The translations under genes were made by a program, and so were the position numbers. A DNA stretch of 64,000 nt. It comes from a bacterium. Its GTDB lineage: Bacteria > Bacillota_I > Bacilli_A > RFN20 > CAG-826. Under the pieces are notes generated by a model. The model was not told where the DNA came from, searched no databases, and saw nothing but the letters and a program-made list of their open reading frames with translations. This document shows, one piece after another, positions 50,059-50,256 of this stretch; position 1 is the stretch's first letter; the number at the start of each line of letters is the position of its first letter. The stretch spans positions 26,317 to 90,316 of the forward strand of contig CAVHQU010000001.1 of assembly GCA_963638555.1 (NCBI GenBank). The letters are read 5' to 3'.

Positions 50059-50129
50059 ATATTTGCTCCTTAAATGTAAGCCTTTACAAATATGATAAAC
50101 CTTTTTCAAAATAAATTAACAATTTAGGT

Positions 50130-50167
50130 ACGAAATGACATTTTTTCAGCACGAAATGACATTTTTT
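50130..50167 (+). promoter_or_regulatory. Two direct repeats ACGAAATGACATTTTTT spaced 21 bp (related to the 18261-18337 repeats) upstream of the HdeD-like gene
   Basis: Copies at 50130-50146 and 50151-50167. The core GAAATGACATTTTTT is close to GAAACGACCTTTTTT (about 13 of 15 positions, by eye). A degenerate third copy follows. Confidence 0.4.
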
Positions 50168-50256
50168 ACCGAAATATTGATTTATTTGCTCAAATTTTTA
50201 CATTTTCTATCAGTTTTGGAATAAAATGTTCAACGCAAAAAGGAGAAAAAATTTAT

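Follow-up and report, generated by a model that had tools for sequence, protein, structure and literature searches.

Sites bound by LytTR-type response regulators consist of direct repeats of 9–11 nt with spacers of 11–13 nt (PMC4847170) and usually lie 4–11 bp upstream of the -35 box, with 10 bp as the commonest distance (PMC6193735), which places them about 27–34 nt from the -10 box. Here we describe a repeat array of this anatomy in the window, that is, the whole 64,000-nt stretch of DNA that was analysed. The array shares with the paired-repeat sites of this regulator class (AgrA P2/P3, the ComE box, PlnC/D, BlpR, the VirR boxes and S. mutans HdrR/BrsR) a core of about 10 nt, an 11-nt spacer and a 21-bp period, as well as a position about 29–33 nt upstream of the -10 box at promoters whose -35 box is weak. 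As in those systems (PMC4847170, PMC6193735), a related and larger array fronts the operon of the regulator, which implies autoregulation. Unlike them, the arrays in the window are flanked by divergent genes and may act bidirectionally, comprise three to five units instead of two, occur without peptide pheromone, exporter or bacteriocin/immunity genes, and have glycoside-utilisation operons as their candidate targets.

Two further described systems resemble the array in part. The yhjX-promoter site of E. coli YpdA/YpdB (PyrSR) carries GGCATTTCAT(TCC) every 21 bp, the reverse complement of which, GGAATGAAATGCC, is almost the leader unit GGAATGAAAYGAC of the two-component system described below; checked in E. 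coli, the site form in the yhjX promoter is GGCATTTCATTCC-N8-GGCATTTCATGCC. The YpdB target is an MFS transporter, as is the case here, and the sense of the motif on its coding strand is that of the window units toward the MFS gene. By this analogy, to which we attach little weight, the window units would point at the minus-strand genes. The E. coli site B, however, overlaps the -35 box at about 18 nt from the -10 box, compared with 29 nt here, and the kinase in the window is AgrC-like (HATPase_c_5) and not LytS-type. The motif resemblance may be coincidental, and because the regulator in the window is just 22% identical to YpdB, we kept the comparison as a weak analogy only. Activators of the AraC/XylS family bind two direct half-sites of 17 bp each, spaced at a period of 21 bp, upstream of sugar operons, at promoters without a -35 box. 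The array is similar in that its period is 21 bp, a sugar transporter/hydrolase operon lies downstream of it and the promoter has no -35 box, but it differs in that an AraC gene is not linked to the locus and in that the units resemble the leader of a LytTR operon.

The array is located in a 198-bp divergent promoter region between a minus-strand operon, headed by an MFS transporter gene, and a plus-strand gene for a small membrane protein. The features of this region and its neighbours are the following:

44546–45577, minus strand: GT2 glycosyltransferase (Pfam PF00535), third gene of the MFS operon.
45590–48034, minus strand: GH3 glycosidase, second gene of the operon, assigned by homology and by direct NCBIfam GH3 family matches.
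48067–50058, minus strand: MFS_2 / GPH-family glycoside transporter (Pfam PF13347; TIGR00792 gph), first gene of the operon.
50075–50088, no strand assigned: cre-like palindrome TGTAAGCCTTTACA, situated within the short 5′ leader of the MFS operon.
50092–50097, minus strand: putative -10 box of the MFS operon, TATCAT, 29 nt from unit R1; kept as TATCAT/TATTAT in all lineages.
50127–50139, plus strand: unit R1, GGTACGAAATGAC, 14.7 bits, matching the leader consensus GGAAYGAAAYGAC at 12 of 13 positions.
50148–50160, plus strand: unit R2, AGCACGAAATGAC, 8.6 bits, matching GGAAYGAAAYGAC at 11 of 13 positions; starts 21 bp from the start of R1.
50166–50178, plus strand: unit R3, TTACCGAAATATT, degenerate, 18 nt after R2, -7.4 bits.
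50222–50227, plus strand: putative -10 box of the small gene, TAAAAT, 61 nt after R2 and 43 nt after R3.
50257–50748, plus strand: single-gene unit encoding a 163-aa polytopic membrane protein, of the DUF308 superfamily by transitive homology.
50769–50788, no strand assigned: bidirectional terminator hairpin common to the small gene and the convergent copA.

By tblastn, the GH3 glycosidase ORF showed 85–93% identity to genes at the orthologous loci, whose Pfam domains are Glyco_hydro_3, Glyco_hydro_3_C and Fn3-like. The putative promoter of the MFS operon has no good -35 box. The palindrome in its leader, which we take to be a cre site by its fit to the cre consensus, is invariant across array types A and B (defined below) and has the form TGAAAGCGTTTACA in L017. 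On the other side, the -10 box of the small gene (TAAAAT/TACAAT/TAGAAT) is found about 25–30 nt before the ATG in all orthologues, and in the window this putative promoter has only a poor -35 box (TTTACA, 19-nt spacer). The minus-strand operon, which starts just 68 nt beyond the other side of the array, had not been mentioned in the first-pass annotation.

That annotation had reported a repeat occurring twice at an exact 21-bp spacing (50130 and 50151), and exact matching bore this out. The 17-mer ACGAAATGACATTTTTT has exactly two plus-strand copies in the window, at 50130–50146 and 50151–50167, 21 bp apart from start to start, and extending both copies in register gave 21 nt with 86% identity (50123–50143 versus 50144–50164). 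R1 and R2 have the core ACGAAATGAC, corresponding to about 10 nt of core plus an 11-nt spacer at a 21-bp period. Compared with LytTR sites, which comprise at least two direct repeats of about 9–11 nt at 11–13 nt spacing (a period of 20–23 bp), the locus has two exact 17-mers plus a degenerate third unit at 21 bp, and the leader array has a period of 21/22 bp. The unit orientation relative to the downstream plus-strand gene, also pointed out at that stage, is indeed the same as in the leader, trivially so, as units and gene are both on the plus strand. Direct repeats of at least 14 nt at 21–22 bp spacing occur at three places in the 64 kb, namely the kinase leader, the 50130 site and one place within a coding sequence. 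With up to 3 mismatches allowed, ACGAAATGACATTTTTT had 4 matches in the window against 1.06 expected, a count reached by 2 of 100 shuffles, and these 4 matches were both ACGAAATGACATTTTTT copies and two kinase-leader units, with nothing else in the window. Once the leader is set aside, R1 is the top-scoring 13-mer of the window.

The window also encodes a two-component system (TCS) with a LytTR regulator, which, with its leader array, is arranged as follows:

14821–18096, minus strand: large GH3 protein of 1091 aa, diverging from the TCS.
18225–18230, minus strand: candidate -10 box of the large-GH3 operon, TAGAGT, in a predicted promoter 30 nt from leader unit R1.
18261–18357, plus strand: leader array, flanked by the large GH3 gene and the kinase gene, conserved in L006, L020 and L007.
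18371–18376, plus strand: putative -10 box of the kinase operon, TATAAT, 33 nt after leader unit R4 and 6 nt before the ATG.
18383–19717, plus strand: histidine kinase with an AgrC-like HATPase_c_5 GHKL domain (PF14501).
19707–20450, plus strand: response regulator with a receiver domain (PF00072) and a LytTR DNA-binding domain (PF04397).

Leader units R1–R4 (GGAATGAAAYGAY) start at 18261, 18282, 18304 and 18325, with a period of 21/22 bp, and the strong form of these four units is GGAATGAAA(C/T)GA(C/T). A fifth unit, R5 (18345–18357), is degenerate and overlaps the -35 region of the kinase operon; GAAACGACCTTTTTT occurs exactly at 18266 and 18309 within this array of four to five units. The minus-strand run led by the large GH3 gene also includes two unknown genes and a GH5 gene (10503–11897). 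At its candidate -10 box, a TACTnTA block is invariant in four loci, with the box in the form TAGAGT/TAAAGT; the assignment of this box is a guess from the sequence. Comparison of the regulator with PDB sequences gave generic receiver and LytTR matches only.

Systems that combine an AgrC-like kinase with a LytTR regulator are as a rule associated with peptide quorum sensing, bacteriocins or virulence. The pairing of an AgrC-like kinase with a LytTR regulator, characteristic of cassettes of the Agr/Com/Pln/Blp type, is present in the window. Besides the GH3 gene, the TCS neighbours include a 507-aa exonuclease-domain protein and thymidine kinase, and no pheromone precursor, processing/export or bacteriocin/immunity gene was found among these neighbours, in a search that covered very small ORFs in part. 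Likewise, we found no bacteriocin, peptide, exporter or immunity genes near either the array or the TCS. A system of the HdrRM type, in which a LytTR regulator is paired with a membrane inhibitor (PMC6193735), was considered and rejected: the small gene forms a unit of its own, 30 kb away from the regulator, and the regulator here comes with a receiver domain as well as a cognate kinase.

To compare the array with the leader, we built matrices from 12 leader units of three species, with the 50130 site excluded, and scanned for tandem pairs 20–22 bp apart. With the 20-column matrix, the 50130 site was the best tandem pair in the window outside the leader, with 26.0 bits, a score that none of 200 Markov nulls attained. 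The 14-column core matrix alone was much weaker (p about 0.05–0.11), and part of the 20-column score was contributed by the T-rich spacer. In a second species carrying the TCS, the same leader-derived matrix ranked the orthologous array top among the non-leader sites in 280 kb of related loci. Furthermore, the leader units GGAACGAAATGAT and GGAATGAAATGAC of L006 show that natural variation among leader units covers the array core ACGAAATGAC; the leader units of L007 have the form GGAATGAAAsGrC. The close relation to the kinase-leader units claimed at first reading is upheld by the 12/13 and 11/13 matches to GGAAYGAAAYGAC and by the top non-leader matrix rank in the window. The relatedness is real but moderate. 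The genome encodes a LytTR regulator whose own promoter repeats resemble the site, with the core-only matrix being weak. Two other leads from these scans were discarded. A third array candidate at 57030–57090, upstream of a ZIP transporter gene, was not conserved in relatives, and the metagenome pattern GGAAYGAAAYGAY-N7-10-GGAAYRAAAYGAY yielded 24 loci that were all unrelated tandem repeats or satellites, none of which encodes a relative of the kinase, the regulator, the GH3 or MFS proteins or the small protein.

The array was orthologously conserved in about eight related lineages, in which three arrangements could be distinguished:

Type A (the window, L011, L021–23): region of about 200 bp with units GGTACGAAATGAY and AGCACRAAATGAC, followed by a weak unit.
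Type B (L001–5, L012–14, L024–31): region of about 330–390 bp with a weak CGAAAAATGGCAC, followed by two GCGTGAAYTGACAT.
Type C (L015, L017): region of 150–184 bp with AAAATGCAA units.

In a MAFFT alignment, the three unit positions aligned as orthologous across the types, with the invariant core AAnTGnCA. R3, degenerate in the window, is identical in the species of L021 and is the ortholog of a strong unit in related lineages. Among the six lineages of type B, a block comprising the RBS, the cre-like site, the -10 box and the array was 65–100% invariant per 20-column window, with the exception of some 20 columns that separate the -10 box from the array (50% invariant). Beyond the array, about 190 nt at 0–25% invariance were followed by a separate conserved island with the -35 and -10 boxes of the small gene.

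These alignments bear on the possibility that the repeat is a functionless 21-bp slippage duplication in AT-rich intergenic DNA. The two window copies are identical at 17 of 17 positions, as if they were recent. Against a neutral origin, the multi-unit structure recurs in all orthologous regions, the array is near-invariant beside unconserved DNA in the six type B lineages, and the two unit copies in L021 have diverged from each other, which indicates that the duplication is old. We therefore regard slippage as very improbable. Even less credible is that the units form part of a transcribed RNA leader of the small gene, or a palindromic operator (AAATGACATTT dyad in each unit) for a dimeric helix-turn-helix repressor. 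The predicted fold of 50120–50260 does pair the units via this dyad (z = -1.7), and the dyad is perfect in both window copies; but equally good folds were obtained in 7 of 200 shuffles, and no Rfam family matched at gathering score in the window or at E ≤ 0.7 in 49950–50400, and on these grounds an RNA element was rejected. The array is probably not transcribed, as it lies upstream of the conserved -10 box of the small gene. An operator of the form AAATGnCATTT in each unit was also rejected, because the dyad is lost in unit R1 of L021 (GAAATGATGTTT) and in the units of type B. Judged from these comparisons, the repeat is a genuine, selectively maintained array with LytTR-site anatomy that is predicted to bind protein, and the repeat pair, conserved as it is in related bacteria, probably binds a regulator of the LytTR type.

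We then considered which promoter the array fits. The distance from R1 to the putative MFS -10 box is 29 nt, within the 27–34 nt derived for LytTR sites, and it is kept at 28–31 nt in types A, B and C, with the conserved MFS -10 box followed immediately by the cre-like site in every type. R2 lies 61 nt from the -10 box of the small gene and the degenerate R3 lies 43 nt from it, both outside that range. Across the types, the last strong unit is 29–31 nt from the small-gene -10 box in type C, 61 nt in the window and 150–290 nt in type B. In the leader, both the 33 nt from R4 to the TATAAT of the kinase operon and the 30 nt from R1 to the candidate minus-strand -10 box of the large GH3 operon fall within 27–34 nt. 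With 29 nt to the MFS -10 box against 61 nt to that of the small gene, the array is positioned in this genome as an activator site of the MFS operon would be, and not as one of the small gene.

The first-pass annotation had instead proposed that the TCS regulator acts at the array on the plus-strand small gene, described as HdeD/DUF308-like and as a plausible immunity- or stress-type target. Several observations agree with this. The units are oriented as they are in the kinase leader; in type C, the last strong unit lies 29–31 nt from the small-gene -10 box, comparable to the 33 nt for leader R4; and in the window, where the -35 box of the small gene is poor, R3 sits 43 nt away from its -10 box, farther than usual by one helical turn. 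R3, however, scores just -7.4 bits, and the strong units are 61 nt away here and 150–290 nt away in most relatives, those of type B, where about 190 nt of unconserved spacer separates them from an independent -35/-10 island. The spacing that stays constant (28–31 nt) is the one to the MFS -10 box and its cre-like site. In addition, at the small-gene homologue that lies beside asnA in another genomic context (L018/L019), no array is present, and the neighbourhood is devoid of immunity or bacteriocin genes. We consider control of the small gene by the TCS as the main function of the array to be doubtful, and the immunity or stress role to be unsupported, given that no bacteriocin, peptide or exporter genes are nearby.

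The family assignment of the small protein stands in part. Searched against Pfam, the 163-aa protein gave no significant match (DUF308, PF03729, E = 3.7, with 8.3 bits where the cut-off is 25). When a profile was made from its 14-member family, in contrast, 171 distant relatives were retrieved; 61 of them were scanned, and 47 of these matched DUF308 (PF03729), with a best E of 2.7e-15. As only the relatives match, and not the protein itself, the DUF308 label holds by transitive homology only. The protein resembles HdeD/DUF308 proteins in its length of about 160 aa and its glycine-rich, repeated transmembrane hairpins and differs from them in falling below Pfam significance. The close family comprises 16 clusters, and the retrieved contexts were all between the MFS operon and copA/csoR, save the one beside asnA.

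Position, the conserved block and the parallel geometry of the leader all tie the array, as far as sequence comparison goes, to the MFS_2-GH3-GT2 operon. This glycoside operon, rather than the small membrane gene, is the more likely target. Co-regulation of the small gene may occur in the compact arrangements (type C, perhaps also type A), but the conserved partner of the array is not this gene.

The identity of the binding protein is a separate question, on which the distribution of the TCS bears. Searches with the kinase and the regulator returned three orthologue clusters only, with 100, 79–85 and 71% identity, and the next regulator match had 39% identity. A scan of species-representative genomes returned the same two TCS relatives, L006 and L007. 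In these searches, the TCS was thus confined to three lineages. In the second TCS-carrying species, L021 (a type A array) is on the TCS contig of L006, and L022 is in the assembly of L020; the pairing of site and regulator covers two TCS-carrying species, none of the small-gene cluster members being on the L007 contig. Arrays with positive leader-matrix scores were found only in these two paired species, and types B and C scored ≤0. As the TCS species with matching arrays share ancestry, their co-occurrence amounts to a single evolutionary event. Flanking proteins (88–96% identical) place the type B genomes at the same distance from the window as L006. No TCS orthologue was detected in type B, either on contigs of 235–327 kb, a span that would include a syntenic TCS, or in ENA assemblies. 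The relatives without a detectable TCS orthologue have kept the array with different unit sequences (GCGTGAAYTGACAT, AAAATGCAA), which means that some other protein must bind it there, one that may act here as well. Arrays match the leader where the TCS is present, yet the array is maintained without it, and this pattern cuts both ways.

A different regulator common to all lineages, either another LytTR protein or an AraC-type sugar regulator, is accordingly a possible, if somewhat unlikely, binder, the likeness to the TCS leader being partly coincidental. The array is orthologous and constrained in lineages without a detectable TCS orthologue; types A and B have the common core GAAnTGACAT and are as close to each other as type A is to the leader consensus; the core-only matrix is of marginal significance; and sugar operons of this kind are usually under a dedicated sugar regulator. 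No regulator gene, on the other hand, was linked to the locus in any of about 30 loci, where CsoR was the sole transcription factor nearby. The one AraC gene of the window (28607–29557) belongs to a glucuronate cluster and is unlinked to the array locus in relatives, and it was rejected as the regulator. Positive leader-matrix scores occur only in TCS genomes, with the array the top non-leader match in the 64 kb and the 280 kb, and the unit sequences vary by lineage type, which would be unexpected for a single conserved regulator. Weighing these points, we consider the chances about evenly balanced that the TCS regulator is the binder in this genome, where it is the most plausible candidate. 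The array is plausibly the second target of the TCS here. The small regulon envisaged in the first-pass annotation retains its two components, the TCS operon (18383–20450) and a conserved LytTR-like cis-element, and the choice of the small gene as its target is not supported; because the array is also conserved in relatives without a detectable TCS orthologue, a regulon of this one TCS is not the sole reading.

Taken together, we propose that 50127–50178 is a conserved array of three units of about 21 bp, two strong and one degenerate, which would serve as an upstream activator site, with dimers of a LytTR-type response regulator most likely binding to it head-to-tail. The best candidate in the genome is the regulator encoded at 19707–20450, the leader of which carries nearly the same unit (GGAAYGAAAYGAC). 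The promoter predicted to be activated is that of the minus-strand MFS_2-GH3-GT2 operon, with its conserved -10 box and no recognisable -35 box, and the cre-like site just downstream of this -10 box would subject the glycoside operon to catabolite repression. The leader array would face the large GH3 operon in the same geometry, with the unit edge 29–30 nt from the minus-strand -10 box. The TCS would then control two glycoside-utilisation operons in addition to itself, and control of the small gene would be possible but secondary. Consistent with this proposal, the two putative targets on the minus strand are sugar operons that include a GH3 gene and have cre-like sites. Besides the weak core-only matrix and the persistence of the array in lineages without a detectable TCS orthologue, other observations run counter to it. 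The unit orientation toward the minus-strand promoters is opposite to that at the kinase promoter, and known LytTR sites are usually unidirectional. The 29–31 nt to the small-gene -10 box in type C (L015, L017) would favour the small gene as the target there, and the type C arrangement looks truly bidirectional. Taken as a whole, the proposal that a LytTR regulator, with the TCS as best candidate, activates the MFS_2-GH3-GT2 operon from this array is tentative, and we rate it slightly below an even chance.

A further-reaching reading is that the AgrC-like kinase and its LytTR regulator directly control the two GH3 operons via multi-unit 21-bp arrays between divergent promoters, on top of CcpA/cre, and that sister lineages lost the TCS and retuned the units to another regulator, that is, regulator turnover at a fixed cis-module. 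We regard this reading as unlikely.

The proposed mechanism is not new in kind, and its practical value lies in assigning the correct regulated gene, which would be the sugar operon and not the small protein. If the regulator binds the array, a small regulon would be defined for an uncharacterised LytTR TCS of uncultured gut-type Bacillota, and a class of kinases that mostly occurs in peptide signalling would be linked to carbohydrate uptake and hydrolysis. With units specific to each lineage, in genomes with or without the TCS, the array may also offer a natural case for studying the co-evolution of LytTR specificity and its binding sites.

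The kinase gene of the TCS (HATPase_c_5 kinase and LytTR response regulator) starts at an ATG at 18383, 6 nt downstream of a perfect TATAAT, and no Shine-Dalgarno sequence was present before this ATG (18371-18385). The same layout was retained in related loci carrying the TCS, with a spacing of 6 nt in L006 and L020 and 9 nt in L007; transcripts of the TCS therefore probably have little or no 5' leader. Downstream, a gene at 20447-21970 overlaps the regulator stop codon and so seems to share a transcript with the TCS; its 507-aa product carries an RNase_T / PolC-type 3'-5' exonuclease domain. 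The regulator of L007 is instead followed, after 70 nt, by a different ORF of 625 aa.

The YpdB/PyrR site GGCATTTCATTCC in the E. coli yhjX promoter (L032, 1524-1557), when reverse-complemented, is almost the same as the leader unit GGAATGAAAYGAC (18261-18337), although the LytTR regulator of the window shares only 22% identity with E. coli YpdB/PyrR. Within the window, GGAATAAAATGTT at 50218-50230 scored 10 bits (10/13) with the matrix built from the leader units and overlaps the -10 box of the small membrane-protein gene; because it was not conserved in L021, the array locus on the L006 contig, this match is probably due to chance. An imperfect 23-bp tandem repeat (ATTGATGAARTTGGC...) at 57030-57090, upstream of a minus-strand ZIP transporter gene, bears a loose likeness to the GAAnTGnCA core. 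It was not conserved in L001, L005 or L017, where a conserved palindrome, AGTTAG-N-CTAACT, adjoining TATAAT is found instead. An 18-nt direct repeat with 21-bp spacing (ATTTCGCCTTCTTTGAAA / ATTTCGCCTTTTTCGTAA) at 62482-62520, within a Crp/Fnr-like gene (61944-62639, minus strand), showed no sequence kinship to the LytTR-type units.

Cre-like palindromes were found in two operon leaders:

50075-50088, leader of the MFS operon, cre-like palindrome TGTAAGCCTTTACA
18151-18164, leader of the large GH3 operon, cre-like palindrome AGTAAGCCCTTACA

Their presence in both leaders suggests that the two operons would be under CcpA catabolite repression. The MFS-operon palindrome was kept across all relatives, and its L017 version, TGAAAGCGTTTACA, is a canonical cre. 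Between the cre-like site and the large GH3 gene's ribosome-binding site lies a strongly conserved block (18100-18150) containing a small hairpin (CCGA...TCGG), the loop of which is altered in L007; this block may act as an RNA element in the 5' leader of the operon. Elsewhere in the large GH3/GH5 operon, an unannotated ORF of 374 aa ends in a tandem duplication of 18 bp at 12004-12038 (CCTGGGAAACCGCCACCG, 1.9 copies), which is perfect.

Across the MFS/small-gene intergenic regions of L001-L031, the two strong adjacent units of the array were nearly identical to each other within each lineage, whereas types A, B and C differed from one another in unit sequence. Such a distribution points to concerted evolution of the array or to its retuning to lineage-specific regulators.
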